In this document: piece after piece, positions 3,459-17,653 of the stretch | Position numbering within the stretch: position 1 is the first letter of the stretch | Layout: every line of letters starts with the position of its first letter | From: an uncultured virus (IMG/VR IMGVR_UViG_3300043568_001465) | Lineage: Duplodnaviria; Heunggongvirae; Uroviricota; Caudoviricetes | Virus record (IMG/VR): IMGVR_UViG_3300043568_001465 | Strand: one strand, 5' to 3' | Length of the DNA stretch: 20,000 bases | Program-made: the position numbers and the translations under genes | The notes under the pieces: generated by a model | What the model saw: only the letters and a program-made list of their open reading frames with translations | Told to the model about the DNA's origin: nothing | Database searches by the model: none

Positions 3459-4109
3459 ATGACTAACACACAATCACACGCGGAAAAAGAATTAGAAATT
3501 CTAGCTGATAACACACCAGACGCTGTTATATTGGAATTTAAGGATGAACTATTGGCGTTGTGTGAAAAGTTTGGTAACAGTGGGCAAAGCGGTGGATCTG
3601 CGCCGTATGTTGCTGGAGCATTATCTTCTGCGGTAAAGAAGTTATGCTTACAACAAACCATCGCGCCATTAACTGGTGAAGATAGTGAATGGTGTGATGT
3701 TACTGAGCAAAGTAATGGTGAAATGTTATATCAGAACAAAAGAAACTCCGCAGTATTCAAAGATGAACAAGGTGTATGGTATCTAGATGCAATTGTATGG
3801 TGTGCTGATACACCTGGTGATAGCGGAAACAATTGGGACAACTTCAGTGGTACTGTTGAAGGCATTAAAAGTAGAGGTTACATTAAAGAGTTTCCATTTG
3901 AACCTAAAACGTTTCGTATCAACGTAACAAGAGAGATGCTTCCATCTGATTGGGACCAAGAACCATTTTATCAAGATAGTGATTATTATATCACATCTGA
4001 GTTTGAGGAAACTGGTATAAGGAGATGGATTCCAGGTGACAAATATCGTTATATCATTAAAGATATGAAGCAATTGGATGAAGTATTTGAATACTATCAA
4101 AAGAAATAA
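3459..4109 (+). CDS. Hypothetical phage protein
   Basis: 216-aa ORF containing GQSGGSA and LYQNKRNSAVFKD segments. Function unknown. Confidence 0.75.
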   Translation: MTNTQSHAEKELEILADNTPDAVILEFKDELLALCEKFGNSGQSGGSAPYVAGALSSAVKKLCLQQTIAPLTGEDSEWCDVTEQSNGEMLYQNKRNSAVFKDEQGVWYLDAIVWCADTPGDSGNNWDNFSGTVEGIKSRGYIKEFPFEPKTFRINVTREMLPSDWDQEPFYQDSDYYITSEFEETGIRRWIPGDKYRYIIKDMKQLDEVFEYYQKK

Positions 4110-10252: not shown

Positions 10253-10554
10253 GAAGGTTTAAAAAGATAGTAAAAGAATGGAATGAAGCCACAAATGCTG
10301 AGATTATCGAAGGAATCAGGGATAATTTCATCTTTGGCTTCCTAGGAGCCACCATTGTGGTGTTTATATCCACCAGAACCGACATAATGGTTCTCGCGGG
10401 GTATATCTCCTACTACTACTTCATGGGTAGAATCGTCAACCGACCGAAATATGTAACTTCGCTGGGTAAATTAATAGTATTCCCAATACCTTCAGCACTA
10501 GGAGCATTCGCAGGATATAAATTAGCATATATAATTCAAAATTTAATGACATGA
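10249..10554 (+). CDS. Membrane protein
   Basis: ATGA-coupled start and hydrophobic segments. Confidence 0.7.
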   Translation: MRRFKKIVKEWNEATNAEIIEGIRDNFIFGFLGATIVVFISTRTDIMVLAGYISYYYFMGRIVNRPKYVTSLGKLIVFPIPSALGAFAGYKLAYIIQNLMT

Positions 10555-11090
10555 CAAAGCACTATTTAAACTTCTCTATTAAAGATATCAAAGGAGAAGT
10601 ATGGAAAGATGTAATTGGGTACGAAGAACAATACTTAGTATCAAACAAAGGTAGAATAAAATCCAAGAGGTGTATTAGGATAATGAAGTTCGAATCCTTT
10701 GATGGTTATGTAAGGTTAAGAACCTTTAAGAAAGGAATCAAAAAGAACCTAAGGATACATAGAGCAGTGGCAATGGCGTTTATTTCAAACCCAAATAACC
10801 ATGAACAAATAAATCATATCAATGGGATAAAGGATGATAACCGTGTAGAGAATCTAGAATGGTGTCGACCTCTAGATAATAGAAAACACGCCTCTGAAGT
10901 TCTCGGCTTCAAAAATGGAGATATAATGGTTGCACACCTCGACCGGAACGGAACTATACTAGGAGCATATAACACCTTAAATAAAGCCGCCGGACAGTCA
11001 GGCGCATCAAAGGCCACCATTCGCCGATCCTTATATAAAAAACTTCCGACCAGATACGGACATTCTTGGAAAAAAATGGTACTTTTGTAA
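10551..11090 (+). CDS. NUMOD4-HNH homing endonuclease
   Basis: NUMOD4 EVWKDVIGYEEQYLVSNKGRIKS and HNH IHRAVA..F...INHINGIKDDNRVENLEW, with a C-terminal NUMOD1-like HTH. Confidence 0.92.
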   Translation: MTKHYLNFSIKDIKGEVWKDVIGYEEQYLVSNKGRIKSKRCIRIMKFESFDGYVRLRTFKKGIKKNLRIHRAVAMAFISNPNNHEQINHINGIKDDNRVENLEWCRPLDNRKHASEVLGFKNGDIMVAHLDRNGTILGAYNTLNKAAGQSGASKATIRRSLYKKLPTRYGHSWKKMVLL

Positions 11091-11503
11091 AAAATAATGT
11101 TTTAAATCATGGTTCATCCTAGGGAATTGATTGCTGATATATTTGGAATAGATGATTCACTCTTTGAAGTTGGTGATAGATTAGAATATGAGGAAAATGC
11201 GTGGCGTAGATATATGTTTAACAAACCAATGGATGAAATAGGTGTTTATGTTCTTTATAAAGGCGACAAGATAGTTTATATTGGCTTTAGTAAACAACTT
11301 CATATAAGAATTCGAAGTCATTGTTATAATAAAAAAATACAATGGGATATTTTTGAAAAGTACCTAATAGGTTGTGCTCTAATGTCTAGATTCATAGAGG
11401 AAAACCTTATTATATACTATAAACCCACATATAATAACATTAGCAGACCTAATCATTTTATACATTAATTTCCGACCAGATACGGACACTCTTGGAGAAA
11501 AAT
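11044..11503 (+). repeat. 34-bp direct repeat (11044-11077 and 11470-11503) flanking the GIY-YIG gene
   Basis: TTCCGACCAGATACGGACA(T/C)TCTTGGA(A/G)AAAAAT, 32/34 identical. Confidence 0.92.
11109..11468 (+). CDS. GIY-YIG nuclease family protein
   Basis: GVYVLY...IVYIGFSKQLHIRIRSH...IEENLI..YKPTYN. Confidence 0.88.
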   Translation: MVHPRELIADIFGIDDSLFEVGDRLEYEENAWRRYMFNKPMDEIGVYVLYKGDKIVYIGFSKQLHIRIRSHCYNKKIQWDIFEKYLIGCALMSRFIEENLIIYYKPTYNNISRPNHFIH

Positions 11504-11519
11504 TATACTAACATAATAT

Positions 11520-11855
11520 ATGGAAAAGAAACTAGGTAAAATACAATCAGTTAGATTTGGCCACGGAGGTTATCAGGATGCATGCATTGGTATATCTGTC
11601 ACACTTGGTGATAGTTCTTGGAGTGTAGGTGATTTTAAAGGTACATGGGACCCTGAGATGGTTACCCGTAGCGAATATACCAAATGGACAGAAAAAGATA
11701 GAACAATAGGATTCGACGAGACCATGAGATTCGTTTCCAAACTTCTTAAAGAAGCGAAAGTTAATAGGGTGGAAAACCTAAAAGACATTCCAGTCGAAGT
11801 CACCCTTGATGGTATGCTCCTGAAAGAATGGAGAATACTAACCGAAGTGTTATAG
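11520..11855 (+). CDS. Hypothetical phage protein
   Basis: 111-aa ORF starting 3 nt after the duplicated stop codon. Confidence 0.75.
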   Translation: MEKKLGKIQSVRFGHGGYQDACIGISVTLGDSSWSVGDFKGTWDPEMVTRSEYTKWTEKDRTIGFDETMRFVSKLLKEAKVNRVENLKDIPVEVTLDGMLLKEWRILTEVL

Positions 11856-11869
11856 CCATATTTATCAGA

Positions 11870-12562
11870 ATGAAAGTAGAAGCATTATTCATTTCCGATG
11901 TTCACCTCGGGTCCAAAGGTTCCAACGCCGAAGGCGTTCTGGCGCTATTAAAGCAGTATGAACCGCAAACTTTATTCCTTGTTGGGGATATAATCGACGG
12001 CTGGCTCTTAAAAAGAAAGTTCCGTTGGCCACAATCTCACACCAATGTCATCAGGAAAATACTGTCCTATTCCAAAAATAACACTAAGGTAATATATATC
12101 CCGGGGAATCATGACGAATTCTTAAGGGAATATGGTGAATTCAGTTTTGGTAATCTGGAGGTGCATAATGAGTATATCTGGAACAATACATTCATTACCC
12201 ACGGAGATTTATATGATGGCGTAGTTAAACTAAAGTGGTTAGGTATACTAGGTTCCGTCGGATATGATTTCGCCATAACCATCGACCGTACACTAAAATC
12301 GCTGGGGATGAAACGCTCTCTATCTAAATTCCTAAAGAGCAAGGTTAAAGAAGCCGTTAAATTCATTACCTCCTTTGAATATGAACTAATCCGCCAAGCA
12401 AAGAAACATAATTGCGATACCGTTATATGCGGTCATATACACCATCCAGACGATAGAATGGTCGATGGAGTAAGATACCTAAATTCCGGGGATTGGATTG
12501 AAAATAACTCCTATATCACTTATAACAATGGAAAATACCAAGTACATGAATATAAAGGATAA
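11870..12562 (+). CDS. UDP-2,3-diacylglucosamine hydrolase-like (LpxH/YbbF-type) metallophosphoesterase
   Basis: Motifs FISDVHLG, LVGDIIDGW, IPGNHD, THGD, CGHIH and YLNSGDWIE. ATG 11870 is preceded by ATATTTAT-N4. Confidence 0.85.
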   Translation: MKVEALFISDVHLGSKGSNAEGVLALLKQYEPQTLFLVGDIIDGWLLKRKFRWPQSHTNVIRKILSYSKNNTKVIYIPGNHDEFLREYGEFSFGNLEVHNEYIWNNTFITHGDLYDGVVKLKWLGILGSVGYDFAITIDRTLKSLGMKRSLSKFLKSKVKEAVKFITSFEYELIRQAKKHNCDTVICGHIHHPDDRMVDGVRYLNSGDWIENNSYITYNNGKYQVHEYKG

Positions 12563-13268
12563 ACTCACTATAGTGATTCCTTGTAAGAATGAAGAAAAAT
12601 ACATAGGGAGAACTATACTATCCATAGTAGAACAATATGGTATAAATGGTACAAAAGTAATCATAGCAGACGCTAACTCTACTGATAATACTAGGAATAT
12701 ACTATACGAACTAAAATATACCTATAAGGATATTATCAACATAGAAATAATAAATGGAGGTAAAGTCGCTTATGGTAGAAATAAAGGTTCTGATCTTGTA
12801 ACTACCAAATACACACTATTCCTAGATGCTGATGTAGTTCTCCTGAATAGAGATATAATAAACAATAGCATATATAGAATGCAACATGAACACCTTCATC
12901 TTCTAACCTGTAAAATAAAGTCCATAGGTAAGGACATTAGAACCTCACTCGTATTCCATATCTTCAACCCCCTAAACAAAATCATCTCCACTAAAACCCC
13001 CTTCGCAATAGGGACTTTCTTCTTGACCAGAACTGATGAATTCAGAAAAAGAAATAAATTCGACGAGACACTTCAACACTCAGAAGATTACGCCCTGTCA
13101 AAAACCTACAACCCCGCCAACTTTAGAATATCAAAATACTATGTAGGTCAAGACGATAGAAGATTCAAAAAAATGGGATACCTAGGTATGCTTAAACTAG
13201 TAATCCTAAACTATATCCATAGAGATAATCCAGACCATTATAGAAAAGACGTTAACTACTGGGACTAA
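12546..13268 (+). CDS. Glycosyltransferase family 2
   Basis: Motifs LTIVIPCKNEE, IIADANSTD, GRNKG, LFLDAD and SEDY. Overlaps the upstream gene. Confidence 0.9.
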   Translation: MNIKDKLTIVIPCKNEEKYIGRTILSIVEQYGINGTKVIIADANSTDNTRNILYELKYTYKDIINIEIINGGKVAYGRNKGSDLVTTKYTLFLDADVVLLNRDIINNSIYRMQHEHLHLLTCKIKSIGKDIRTSLVFHIFNPLNKIISTKTPFAIGTFFLTRTDEFRKRNKFDETLQHSEDYALSKTYNPANFRISKYYVGQDDRRFKKMGYLGMLKLVILNYIHRDNPDHYRKDVNYWD

Positions 13269-13292
13269 ATTCCTAGTATACTCCAGGTCTTA

Positions 13293-13594
13293 GCGAGGTC
13301 GACCGAAAGGTCGAGCGAGCATATTACTATGACATATCGACCGGATAAATTTTACCCCTATTTTTATTGCGTTTTTAGTACTAATATCCATACCTTTTTA
13401 TCGTACTCATATTTTATGTATGATTGTATGACAAAATGGCTATATTTCCATATATCTGTATTACAAAATGGAAAAGTGGGAAAAAATGTTAATAAGTGGG
13501 AAGCTCTGGGGATTGACCCTTGCGTGACTCACGACCCACTTTCTAAAAATTTCCAGAAATGAGTACACTCGCTCGACCTTTCGGTCGACCTCGT
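13293..13594. repeat. 28-bp inverted repeat pair (13293-13320 and 13567-13594) around a 246-bp spacer
   Basis: GCGAGGTCGACCGAAAGGTCGAGCGAGC on + versus ACGAGGTCGACCGAAAGGTCGAGCGAGT on -. Confidence 0.92.
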
Positions 13595-13640
13595 TGGCGG
13601 CCCGAGTCATACAAATTTTTTCTGAAAGGCGCAAATTAAG

Positions 13641-13649
13641 TTATCCACA
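13641..13649 (+). promoter_or_regulatory. Perfect DnaA box TTATCCACA (single copy)
   Basis: Exact consensus match. Function is unproven. Confidence 0.35.
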
Positions 13650-13754
13650 TCTATACGGGTCATACAACCGGGTCAAGCGAGGACCGTCAGGTCCGAGCGT
13701 AATAGCCGGTCGACAGGTAGTACATTAATTGCTCGCCCTGAGGGGCTCGCTTCC

Positions 13755-13779
13755 GCCCGGCGTCATACGGCTGGGTTTT
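13755..13779 (+). terminator. Possible terminator for + strand transcription
   Basis: GCCCGGC-GTCATACG-GCTGGGT followed by TTT. Confidence 0.45.
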
Positions 13780-13821
13780 ATGATGCGGATCTTATGAAGC
13801 GTTCTTCTTTCGACCGGAAAC

Positions 13822-13846
13822 AAAAAACCCGGTCATACAACCGGGT
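13822..13846 (-). terminator. Probable terminator for the - strand block
   Basis: On - strand: ACCCGGTT-GTAT-GACCGGGT followed by TTTTT, 50 nt after the stop of 13896..14780. Confidence 0.6.
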
Positions 13847-13895
13847 CAAGCGAGGGACTCGAAGAGTCCCGAGCGAATAAGGTAATACGACCGGA

Positions 13896-14780
13896 TTAAT
13901 TTATATCTATGTTGTAGGTAAATCTTTTAGCGTTATGTGTAAATGTGATACGAAGAGTATCTACTGGCGAGGTTGTGTGATGCTCGAAGTATGACGTGAT
14001 ATAATTTGCTATGGGCTTACAGTATTCGCGTTCGAATTCTGGAGAGTCGATTAAGCCGTGCCAGCCGTCAACAGAATAGTGATCCTTAAGGCCGGTCATG
14101 AACGGGGAATCGCCTAGGAGTATTACGCGTACTTCTATATGGATTTGAATATCCAGGACGCCGGCGTCAGACAGGAAGGCGTTAGATCCAGTTCCCTTTA
14201 GTCGTTTTATACTAGTGCTCATAACTGGGGAGCATCCGAAGATTACTTTTTGGGACATGTCCATTCCCGCATACGTCAGGAAGTCGGCGATGTCCATCTC
14301 TATGCGACCGGCTTTCTTTGAGAAGTTATCTAGCGCCTTCTGAACCTTAGCCATTTTTTTATTCCTGGACTCGTTGAACGCTTTAAGGTCATACGCATGT
14401 ATTGTGGCGTTAACAACTAAGGGCGCGTTCTCTATCAGGAAGTCGAAACCTCTCAGTGGAGGAGACGTAAGCGAAACTATTAAATTTTCCTCGTGTCCGA
14501 AAGCGTCTATCCATATTTTTGTTATATACAGGTGGATTGCTTCTATGTCCTTGATGTCATACTTGGTAAGAAGGATTTTCTTTATATTCTCCACGGCGGA
14601 AATTATCAGGGATCCGTCGATGAGGTCCGGTTCGTTTAACAGTGTAAGTATTACGCCGTACCCGTAGGTATTAGCTGTAACATACATTCTATAATTGTAG
14701 GGACCGTCTTCGAATGCTTTCCCGCGGGTGTATTTGTCTAGAAGGTTAGTTACTTCCGAACTATCTAATTTGTTTGCCAT
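13896..14780 (-). CDS. Hypothetical protein, 294 aa
   Basis: Long ORF preceded by ATATTTAT-N4-ATG at 14785-14792(-). No recognised family. Confidence 0.75.
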   Translation of the reverse strand: MANKLDSSEVTNLLDKYTRGKAFEDGPYNYRMYVTANTYGYGVILTLLNEPDLIDGSLIISAVENIKKILLTKYDIKDIEAIHLYITKIWIDAFGHEENLIVSLTSPPLRGFDFLIENAPLVVNATIHAYDLKAFNESRNKKMAKVQKALDNFSKKAGRIEMDIADFLTYAGMDMSQKVIFGCSPVMSTSIKRLKGTGSNAFLSDAGVLDIQIHIEVRVILLGDSPFMTGLKDHYSVDGWHGLIDSPEFEREYCKPIANYITSYFEHHTTSPVDTLRITFTHNAKRFTYNIDIN

Positions 14781-14796
14781 AGTAATAAATATAAAT

Positions 14797-14827
14797 AAAA
14801 AGGGAGTTCTACATGTGCAGAACCCCC
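14797..14827 (-). terminator. Rho-independent terminator
   Basis: On - strand: GGGGGTTCTGCAC-AT-GTAGAACTCCC followed by TTTT, after 14851..15036. Confidence 0.65.
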
Positions 14828-14850
14828 AGTTTACTAACCAAAAACGAATG

Positions 14851-15036
14851 TTACTTCTTGAGGATCTCGTTACGGTATTGCACCGCAGCTCTCTTTGAAG
14901 TTAAGTTTTTTGAGTAACGACTACCATCTTTGATCACACGTACTCTGTAGCTGGTGCCGTCAAAGTAGATGTTAGGTCCCACTGATGCGTAAGTTGTTAC
15001 TGGTTGTTTCTTTTTTGCTGTTCTTTTAGTAGCCAT
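14851..15036 (-). CDS. Small basic protein, AP2-like DNA-binding fold suspected
   Basis: NIYFDGTSYRVRVIKDGSRYSKNLTSKRAAVQYRNE fits a three-strand-plus-helix AP2/integrase-N pattern. It has its own promoter-like TATATTAG (15055-15062 -) and terminator. Confidence 0.6.
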   Translation of the reverse strand: MATKRTAKKKQPVTTYASVGPNIYFDGTSYRVRVIKDGSRYSKNLTSKRAAVQYRNEILKK

Positions 15037-15125
15037 AATATTTGAGTTTATGAACTAATATAACTAAAAGAATCCAAAAAAAGAAGGGGATGTAAAATAT
15101 TTTTTGGGCATTTCTGCCGGTCGTC

Positions 15126-15473
15126 TCAGTCGCTCACCCTGACGGGCTCGCTGTGCTGGAATTCCTGCCGGACCAGCACGTCATGGATTCTTGCCAGTTC
15201 CGTGGTGGTTACTGTATCCAGGGCGATAGTGAAGTATACCTCCCAGTCGTGTGATACACAGTGGATGTCTCCATCAGTGTTAATGCTGACGGCTAGGTAT
15301 GACGCACGGGCGTTGGGATCACCCTCAGTGCGAAGCACCACGTCCGTCTTGTCGAAGACGAATTGACTTCCTTCATTGTATGACGACAGGGTTATATGGA
15401 TATCCTTTATCACCTCCGACCTGAAGCCGGCTACAAGCGCCTGGAGTTTGTCTGCTGCTGGGTTATTTTCCAT
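15126..15473 (-). CDS. Hypothetical protein
   Basis: 115-aa ORF whose 3' end overlaps a GCGA-hairpin copy. Confidence 0.65.
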   Translation of the reverse strand: MENNPAADKLQALVAGFRSEVIKDIHITLSSYNEGSQFVFDKTDVVLRTEGDPNARASYLAVSINTDGDIHCVSHDWEVYFTIALDTVTTTELARIHDVLVRQEFQHSEPVRVSD

Positions 15474-15474
15474 T

Positions 15475-15807
15475 TTAATTATTTAGGATTAATTCGCGAA
15501 TCCTCTTAGCGTCTGAGCTGGAGAAGTTCGTCGCAATGATGTTTGGGTGACCTTGAGCGTGGATGACGATATCACATCCGATAACATTATCAATAATGTC
15601 GACGCTGGTAATGCTAGCGCGCTTCACCTGCGTGCTGTCGACGCCAATTAGCACGCTGTTGCGCCGGCGCCAGGTTACTATGTCACTGGTGATAGTTATC
15701 CTGTGAGGAGTGAGTACTGGTCCCATCCTGGTTATGCTAGAAGAGAACTCCTCGTTTATTACCCGAGGAGTTTCTCTTTCCATTGCTTCAACATCTTCTC
15801 TAGTCAT
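15475..15807 (-). CDS. Bacterial PH-domain-like protein
   Basis: TPHRITIT...I..ITSVDI...IG.DIVI pattern of bPH domains. Start is ATG 15807 or 15813. Confidence 0.55.
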   Translation of the reverse strand: MTREDVEAMERETPRVINEEFSSSITRMGPVLTPHRITITSDIVTWRRRNSVLIGVDSTQVKRASITSVDIIDNVIGCDIVIHAQGHPNIIATNFSSSDAKRIRELILNN

Positions 15808-17634: not shown

Positions 17635-17653
17635 TTTTTTAGTTATTAAAGGG

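Follow-up and report, generated by a model that had tools for sequence, protein, structure and literature searches.

Hairpins in single-stranded DNA (ssDNA) that are read by proteins are known from few systems, namely G4-type origins, the ssi signals of IncQ plasmids, the promoters of phage N4 and REP/RAYT. In the IncQ plasmid RSF1010, ssiA and ssiB are 40-nucleotide (nt) inverted repeats on complementary strands, with priming taking place 3' of the hairpin (available excerpts of PMC8567376). Stable DNA mini-hairpins with GAAA, GBAA, GABA and GTTA tetraloops or GNA triloops occur at the G4, St-1 and alpha3 priming sites, in ssiA and in N4 promoters (available excerpts of PMC13037366). By resemblance only, ssi signals and DNA mini-hairpin priming or promoter sites are the closest kinds to the locus described here, a set of six hairpins closed at the base by two consecutive G.A pairs in a 20,000-nt stretch (hereafter the window) of an uncultured Caudoviricetes virus (IMG/VR IMGVR_UViG_3300043568_001465). 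The source of the window is a 35,774-base virus contig of IMG/VR whose completeness is rated 11%, so that the genome of this uncultured freshwater phage is large. A 90.5-kb working sequence was obtained by merging this contig with an 80.6-kb contig of the same phage (one mismatch in 25,226 shared bases), and the assembled sequence covers 11–20% of the phage genome.

A preliminary description of this DNA had listed the six hairpins as units alternating between the two strands. All six were found at exactly the coordinates and on the strands given there (el1 to el6, Table 1), in the order +,−,+,−,+,−, so that each strand carries three signals. Our pattern search (a regular expression with RCGA, a stem of 4–9, a loop of 3–5, GAGY and a paired outer base; the census relied on regular expressions and hairpin counts) matched exactly these six sites in the 35,774-base contig. 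This is far above the background of 300 dinucleotide shuffles of the contig (mean 0.28, maximum 3 matches) and of shuffles of the GC-richer 11,266 bases (mean 0.12, maximum 2), and no other copy was found in the 90.5 kb or in the 80.6-kb, 51.1-kb and 16.9-kb contigs of the same phage. The 90.5 kb contained 28 strong GC hairpins, five of them inside the non-coding hub that separates two converging gene blocks. The architecture of two outer pairs, a 2 × 2 mismatch and a GC stem of at least four pairs was present at eight sites including el3–el5, which alone among the eight had a GA/GA mismatch. The inner stems vary in sequence and length as had been claimed, but their pairing is not perfect throughout, with one G.G mismatch in el1 and el2 (7 of 8 pairs) and one G.T pair in el6. 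The outermost pair covaries, being A-T in el2 and G-C elsewhere, and in the el2 ortholog of a related locus (L088) both bases are changed to G-C. The observation is confirmed for five elements and weak for el6.

The proposed strand specificity is borne out by two independent features lying on one and the same strand, the G.A/A.G closure (6/6) and a C-G-closed loop that starts with G and ends with A (5/6; GAAA twice, GTCA twice and GAA once, with CTCA of el4 as the exception). In the same orientation, an A precedes the element in all six cases and a purine follows it. None of the 30 paired stem positions of el1–el5 holds a G.T pair, whereas the U-tract terminators of the phage itself do contain G.T; the single G.T pair of el6 would read A.C on the opposite strand. 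The distance from CGAG to CGAG ranges from 14 to 22 nt while the closure stays constant, suggesting that the fold itself matters and that folding brings the two halves together. This bears on another explanation, in which the elements would be duplex palindromes bound by a dimeric protein, or in which el1 and el2 would delimit a 246-bp segment that is turned round by a recombinase. The two elements indeed form a perfect 26-nt inverted repeat with 248 nt between its arms (246 bp, 13321–13566, between the elements), and a neighbouring 1011-amino-acid (aa) protein gave integrase-repeat and weak resolvase helix-turn-helix matches. Nevertheless, CGAG spacings of 14–22 nt and differing stems would not be tolerable for a single duplex-binding protein, which argues against fixed duplex sites, and the closure is a direct rather than an inverted repeat. 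The segment had the same orientation as in the window in all four contigs with an exact flank match and in the related locus L087, as judged from contigs and alignment. We therefore regard duplex sites or a switch as very improbable.

The hairpins are, as the arrangement of the surrounding words indicates, parts of composite sites and not free-standing. On its purine-rich strand, each site reads, in order, GTMATAC (GTATAC at el1), 11 nt, A, RCGAG, a variable G/C stem, mostly a G...A loop, CGAGY, a purine and CGACCGG. The heptamer, or the hexamer at el1, lies exactly 11 nt from the hairpin in 5/6 cases, with GTCATAC or its complement 5' of el2–el5, a spacing kept also at el2, whose neighbouring hairpin is degenerate. 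A second set of hairpins has the heptamers in its loops, and two members of this set carry T-runs. These two terminator-like hairpins face each other and adjoin el4 and el5; on the opposite strand, each of these elements is followed by a second, T-run-bearing hairpin. CGACCGG occurs seven times in the 90.5 kb against 1.3 expected, and follows el1, el4, el5 and el6 and, with one mismatch, el3. The preliminary interpretation thus stands in so far as the elements are real, non-random, conserved and strand-asymmetric and the evidence leans to DNA, but it had missed the composite sites and the pairing between elements.

Table 1. Features of the hub and its surroundings (window coordinates).
Feature	Position	Strand	Remarks
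Non-coding hub, 627 bp	13269..13895		only long non-coding gap between two converging gene blocks
GTATAC hexamer	13276..13281		11 nt 5' of el1
el1	13293..13320	+	G.A-clamped hairpin, loop GAAA; begins 24 nt past glycosyltransferase stop, sense orientation
AT-rich segment	13321..13566		between el1 and el2
CGACCGG	13338..13344	+	17 nt 3' of el1
el2	13567..13594	−	inverted copy of el1; outer pair A-T
GTCATAC	13606..13612	+	11 nt from el2
Perfect DnaA-box 9-mer	13641..13649	+	between el2 and el3
GTCATAC	13659..13665	+	11 nt 5' of el3, within loop of degenerate hairpin
el3	13677..13698	+	G.A-clamped, 5-bp stem, loop GTCA
Near-palindrome	13706..13716		CGACCGG (−), 18 nt 3' of el4; CGACAGG (+), 12 nt 3' of el3
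el4	13731..13750	−	G.A-clamped, 4-bp stem, loop CTCA
Terminator-like hairpin + T-run	13755..13783	+	hairpin 13755–13776; for + transcripts; G.T pair on + strand only
GTCATAC	13762..13768	+	11 nt from el4, loop of terminator-like hairpin 13755–13776
Terminator-like hairpin + T-run	13816..13847	−	hairpin 13826–13847; for − transcripts; ~50 nt after 294-aa gene
GTCATAC	13832..13838	+	11 nt 5' of el5, loop of terminator-like hairpin 13826–13847
el5	13850..13874	+	G.A-clamped, 7-bp stem, loop GAA
CGACCGG	13888..13894	+	13 nt 3' of el5; GTAATAC 13882–13888 directly before
CGACCGG	15117..15123	−	8 nt 3' of el6; conserved in 5/5 relatives, even without el6 hairpin
el6	15132..15151	−	doubtful member; 4-bp stem with G.T, loop GTCA

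Like the el1/el2 part of the hub, ssiA and ssiB are a near-identical hairpin pair on complementary strands, forming an inverted repeat and accompanied by iterons and an AT-rich segment (available excerpts of PMC8567376 and PMC13037366). The AT-rich segment flanked by el1 and el2 may thus be likened to the IncQ origin, as a candidate origin only; it contains two 15-nt iterons 32 nt apart (13425 and 13457), each with a heptamer on the − strand, and three copies of AAGTGGG (13474, 13494 and 13535), and its only open reading frame (ORF), of 77 aa, had no family match. In both cases the hairpin is capped by a C-G-closed mini-hairpin loop of the GAA type and has a conserved single-stranded part beside it. 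The available excerpts describe the ssi signal as read only as ssDNA, a mode of reading that is proposed here by analogy. In contrast to the ssi signals, the phage locus has six elements with differing stems in a large double-stranded DNA phage and shares no sequence similarity with them, and the cited excerpts describe no tandem G.A clamp closing the base of the ssi hairpins (PMC8567376; PMC13037366). RepA, RepB' and RepC were not found in the phage DNA examined, where the RepB' primase family PF16793 gave no match in the two phage sequences searched, as it also gave none in the control genomes.

The second resemblance is to the extra-stable mini-hairpins GCGNAGC / GCGNNAGC of the G4, St-1 and alpha3 origins and the N4 promoters, which have C-G-closed G...A loops as found here and, according to the available excerpts, are protein-read ssDNA signals of phages whose strand-specific stability comes from sheared G.A pairs (PMC13037366), which is proposed likewise for the elements of the hub. 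In the mini-hairpins as excerpted, G.A pairs lie within the loop only and the stems are short, whereas the stems of the hub are longer and are closed at their base by a second G.A module. N4 promoters have 3-nt loops in that source; the loops here are mostly of 4 nt and copies lie on both strands. An N4-type hairpin promoter has a 5–7-bp stem and a purine loop of 3 nt, lies on the template strand upstream of early genes and comes with a virion RNA polymerase. An identity as N4-type hairpin promoters was rejected, as just el5 has a 3-nt loop, both strands are used and five of the six elements do not face a gene start; no N4-type virion RNA polymerase was recognized in the phage DNA examined. 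Promoter-like sites in the region numbered four against a shuffle mean of 6.4, none at a consistent place beside the elements.

Conservation was assessed in five metagenome loci (L087–L091) whose versions of the 294-aa protein next to the hub are 87–95% identical to that of the window (54–93% being the range of the protein search). L087 retains all six elements, L088 el2–el5 and L089 el5; el1 is identical in L087, and el5 is identical in all three. Apart from the change of the el2 outer pair in L088 described above, the only change within an element was one loop base of el3, which reads GTTA in L087 and L088. The el6 hairpin was present in L087 and L090 and not in L088, L089 and L091, all five relatives covering the site. 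L087, L088 and one RNA-library contig together gave 21 variant sites in 13515–13895, of which two are the compensatory el2 pair, one is the el3 loop base and 18 fall in the other 301 nt, leaving no disruptive variant in 80 stem and closure positions [(301/381)^19 = 0.011]. Several variants directly abut element borders (13566, 13674/5, 13728/30 and 13752). This pattern of variation indicates that the hairpins are under constraint. Furthermore, the hub is better conserved than the flanking genes, with identities of 99.5% in L087, 96.0% in L088 and 100% (over 102 nt) in L089, as compared with 95.3%, 91.4% and 89.5%, respectively, for the neighbouring 294-aa gene.

These data also bear on the idea that the hub is a functionless patchwork of duplications or recombination scars at a module joint, its closure being inherited from one ancestral unit, as with the PeSLs of T4-like phages. 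Repeats are indeed plentiful, comprising a perfect 25-nt direct repeat (13658 and 13831), the 26-nt inverted repeat of el1/el2 and the 90% identical direct repeats of el4/el6 (13731–13751 and 15132–15152) flanking a two-gene cassette. GC content, heptamer use and diversity all shift at the hub, and the junction was not kept, and the elements were lacking, in distant relatives of the glycosyltransferase (80 loci) or of a GP88-like protein (80 loci) encoded on its two sides. Weak, scattered matches to the regular expression were seen in distant relatives (6 loci of L013–L086, and 8 matches in 683 kb of L222–L298). Near 13918, just inside the 3' end of the 294-aa gene, an 80.6-kb and a 4.2-kb contig, both from other samples, stop at the same base; as strain divergence begins there, the assemblies probably broke off at a variable region and did not reach an end of the genome. 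A patchwork is nonetheless improbable, since the stems vary while the closure, the preceding A and the 11-nt spacing are fixed, whereas simple descent would have kept the stems too. It is also countered by the compensatory change in el2, by a hub more conserved than its flanking genes, and by the absence of disruptive changes from the 80 positions when 18 changes fall in the remaining 301 nt.

PeSLs themselves are repeated composite stem-loops at the borders of variable cassettes and possible recombination points, in which they resemble the locus, but they are dispersed in hyperplastic regions, carry sigma-70-like promoters and lie in gene-sense orientation (available excerpts of PMC4122927), while here a single alternating cluster has G.A closure. 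An identity with PeSLs was rejected because of the single cluster and the lack of a consistent promoter beside the elements. As a separate observation, the el4/el6 repeats bracket both terminator-like hairpins, el5 and the genes of the 294-aa protein and a 61-aa protein, and the bracketed segment could be a cassette border.

The 19-nt core of el1 occurred 27 times in 185,579 genomes, always singly, always in high-GC bacterial DNA and never with the closure, and in IMG/VR it was confined to five loci of this phage and one unrelated single match. A wider IMG/VR search for the closure together with CGACCGG hit at least 120 stretches; 38 of the 126 matches listed had any stem, all at a GC of 0.52–0.79, and were judged to be due to chance. 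The rarity of the el1 core speaks against mobile hairpin repeats of the REP/BIME or MITE type spread by an HUH-type single-strand nuclease. In REP and BIME clusters, imperfect palindromes that share a conserved short foot word alternate in orientation between converging genes, a layout that recalls the hub, and they are recognized as ssDNA hairpins, as is proposed here. However, genomes with REPs contain tens to hundreds of copies and an associated RAYT gene, whereas the elements occupy one locus only in 90.5 kb, with all copies within 1.9 kb, and no HUH, transposase or RAYT-like gene was recognized among the 26 + 65 ORFs scanned of this incomplete genome. Thus, of all the explanations considered, mobile repeats appear the least probable.

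The heptamer was distributed very unevenly. Counting both orientations, GTMATAC was absent from the 79-kb left arm, where a maximal-order Markov model predicted 4.5 + 7.2 = 11.7 copies, and had seven copies in the hub and 30 in the 10.6-kb right arm, the latter about one per 350 bp; the copies fall in every reading frame and favour neither a strand nor a frame. As it occurs in both orientations and all frames, it has the character of a DNA-level word, with the hub as the border of its domain. Three related-phage loci (L222, L224 and L253) contain 1.9–2.7 copies per kb as compared with 0.28 per kb over 151 loci. In one of them (L224:5511–5532), an intergenic 7-bp hairpin carries GTAATAC in its 8-nt loop and belongs to the same type as the hub hairpins with heptamer loops.

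With a probability of roughly 40%, we favour the reading that the elements are composite DNA sites whose purine strand folds as ssDNA and serves in priming or loading, or as a signal at the border of the two arms. The elements would then fold in vivo with DNA as the folded molecule, be read by a protein and so have a function. The loop rules, the absence of G.T wobbles, the position behind the own-strand terminator and the fixed 11-nt spacing lean towards DNA; el5 on the + strand and el4 and el2 on the − strand each lie behind the terminator-like hairpin of their own strand. GTTA, the loop of the el3 variant, is also the loop of the St-1 and alpha3 priming hairpins (available excerpts of PMC13037366). 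In the proposed mechanism, the hub would separate two compartments of a large phage genome and, when it becomes single-stranded, the purine-rich strand would fold into a very stable hairpin with a C-G-closed GNA/GNNA loop, a stem of Watson-Crick pairs only and, at the base, a clamp made of two G.A and two outer pairs. The complementary strand would have T/C mismatches at the base and fold weakly. A protein might then read the heptamer together with the hairpin foot and act there. The likeliest job would be strand-specific priming or loading at an origin-like segment, as for ssiA/ssiB of IncQ plasmids. Both el1 and el2 have their 3' side turned towards the AT-rich iteron segment, so that priming 3' of each would run outward in both directions. 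The second option would be a pause or boundary signal between the arms. The more far-reaching claim that the elements constitute a new class of strand-specific DNA signal, a double G.A-clamped hairpin with GTMATAC at 11 nt, making the hub a border and a priming or pausing site between two compartments, is rather doubtful.

Several observations weigh against the ssDNA reading. All data rest on one strain-level lineage, el6 is not conserved, and CGACCGG is missing after el2 and variably spaced (8–18 nt) after the others. The hub has a single DnaA box; the 90.5 kb has four perfect boxes (window −18129, −4832, 13641 and 23708), with no cluster at the hub. An initiator or primase was not recognized in ~90 kb of a genome that is 11–20% complete. 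Both arms are transcribed towards the hub, so that an origin there would mean head-on collisions, which would be unusual, and converging transcription should give positive supercoiling, which opposes cruciform extrusion. The closures of neighbouring elements are Watson-Crick complementary to each other, and el3 and el4 taken as one 80-nt hairpin reach −32.6 kcal/mol as against −19.4 for two local hairpins; larger, junction-like long-range folds were also predicted. With RNA parameters the G.A strand is favoured by 2.1–5.6 kcal/mol with the outer bases paired in 6/6 elements (for el1, −14.9 kcal/mol on the + strand versus −9.3 on the complement). The DNA parameters of ViennaRNA, which do not model the G.A motif, gave −2.3 to −7.8 kcal/mol, left the outer pairs unpaired and separated the strands by just 0.3–2.4 kcal/mol. 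Lastly, RNA-library contigs span el1 (13194–13344) and el2–el4 (13510–13775), so that RNA forms of the elements may exist, even though RNA libraries can hold DNA.

The last points, namely the RNA energies and the RNA-library contigs, would be expected if the elements were instead RNA, i.e. G.A-closed stem-loops on hub transcripts that serve as barriers to 3' exonucleases, as marks of processing sites or as protein-binding sites, each direction of transcription then carrying three strong hairpins beside one ordinary U-tract terminator. In keeping with this, el1 (24 nt after a stop codon) and el6 (over a stop codon) lie at gene ends in sense orientation, and two terminator-like hairpins are present in the hub. 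Tandem G.A loops and GAAA tetraloops are common stable motifs of RNA, and conserved hairpins at converging gene ends are, as a prior, usually RNA signals. On the other hand, a U-tract was found on the G.A strand in 0/6 elements, 3/6 lie behind a terminator-like hairpin of their own strand, and no G.U pair is present in the 30 stem pairs of el1–el5 although the terminators of the phage use G.U. Of the element loops, GAAA alone fits the GNRA rule of RNA, with GTCA, GTTA, CTCA and GAA falling outside it. The constant distance of 11 nt from a heptamer with the behaviour of a DNA word, kept even with the degenerate neighbour hairpin of el2, and the two other converging gene pairs in the 90 kb, which are without hairpins, argue in the same direction. 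A discrete small RNA of the hub was rejected since 13500–13785 folds no better than shuffled sequence (z = −0.45). On balance, an RNA role appears unlikely, while carrying more weight than the other alternatives. Among the RNA-library contigs, none lay on 13345–13509 or 13776–13834, and run X17 had none on 12400–13425. One contig, which ends at 13775 beside a terminator-like hairpin, has its start at 13510, a few bases past a TG-extended −10-like word. As contigs of one RNA-library study cannot show transcript ends or absence, these observations were not used as evidence.

The elements resemble intrinsic terminators and 3' stabilizer stem-loops in being GC-rich stem-loops just after converging genes. 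The terminator alternative, which the preliminary description had itself named, was rejected, as no U-tract occurs within 0–2 nt on the G.A strand of any of the six, although ordinary terminators exist elsewhere in the phage, the closure is non-Watson-Crick and G.U is lacking in the stems of el1–el5. The T-run of the + strand terminator-like hairpin is weakened in L088. In a search of 12800–15600 with Rfam 15, the only match was a sub-threshold one to anti-hemB (20.7 bits against a gathering score of 49.5, E = 0.094), and ARAGORN found no tRNA. The hub is also reminiscent of the injection stop signal region of T5-like phages, a large untranslated region with repeats, inverted repeats, palindromes and DnaA boxes at the border of two differently handled genome parts; that region, however, has eight ordered DnaA boxes and lies in a terminal repeat (available excerpts of bioRxiv 10.1101/866236), as compared with one box in the hub. 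No sign of terminal repeats or of two-step injection was found in this phage DNA.

On its left, the hub is bounded by the last + strand gene, encoding a family-2 glycosyltransferase (stop codon 13266–13268), and on its right by the last − strand gene, encoding the 294-aa protein (stop codon 13896–13898), with − strand genes from 13896 onward; el6 sits in the last seven codons of the gene at 15126–15473 (−), overlapping its stop codon in sense orientation. GC content steps at the hub from ~0.32 in the left arm to 0.41–0.47 in the right arm. As the relatives of the GP88-like right-arm gene have a GC of 0.30–0.36, the right arm of this phage is unusually GC-rich. The two other converging gene pairs in the 90 kb (window −29844 and −4527) simply overlap by 4 nt without intergenic DNA or a hairpin, indicating that convergence alone does not call for such a hub. 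The cumulative GC skew peaks at the hub, yet it flips within a nine-gene inverted block (−29844 to −20389), and thus tracks the direction of transcription and not replication.

Public phage records gave no DNA match to the region in either near or distant mode. The genes recognized encode a tail fibre, sugar and DNA modification enzymes, thymidylate synthase, homing-type endonucleases and the helicase-like 1011-aa protein, which showed weak matches to Xanthomonas and Stenotrophomonas jumbo phages; no polymerase, primase, initiator or HUH nuclease was recognized among the ORFs scanned in ~90 kb of the incomplete genome. The 294-aa protein had no Pfam or PHROG family and no Atlas hit, its PDB sequence matches were at E ≥ 0.018, and its predicted model (pLDDT 67) gave no Foldseek match at E ≤ 0.001. 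Elsewhere in the window, a 132-aa protein (1197–1595, +) carries the C-terminal helix-turn-helix domain of DnaA (PF08299, E = 5e-18), and a 216-aa protein (3459–4109, +) matches the Thoeris inhibitor family Tad3 (PF25185, E = 1.3e-23). About 2 kb upstream of the hub lie free-standing homing-type endonuclease genes (10551–11090, +, NUMOD4 and HNH; 11109–11468, +, weak GIY-YIG), followed by a gene for an Mre11/SbcD-like metallophosphoesterase (11828–12562). The window and the IMG/VR contig differ at eight positions (17492, 17588, 17627, 17643–17645, 18520 and 18525), all outside the finding.

The origins, priming sites and compartment borders of giant phages are almost unknown. The chief interest of the locus lies in the double G.A design, the exact heptamer spacing and the all-or-none split of the heptamer between the arms, the last being a separate, testable puzzle that points to arm-specific DNA handling. 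If the elements are RNA, they would be a modest addition to the known 3'-end stem-loops. If they act as DNA, they would represent a new structural rule, a tandem G.A clamp and a G...A loop at a fixed distance from a heptamer, and would offer a definite place from which to look for the machinery that replicates or handles the DNA of this abundant, uncultured freshwater phage.

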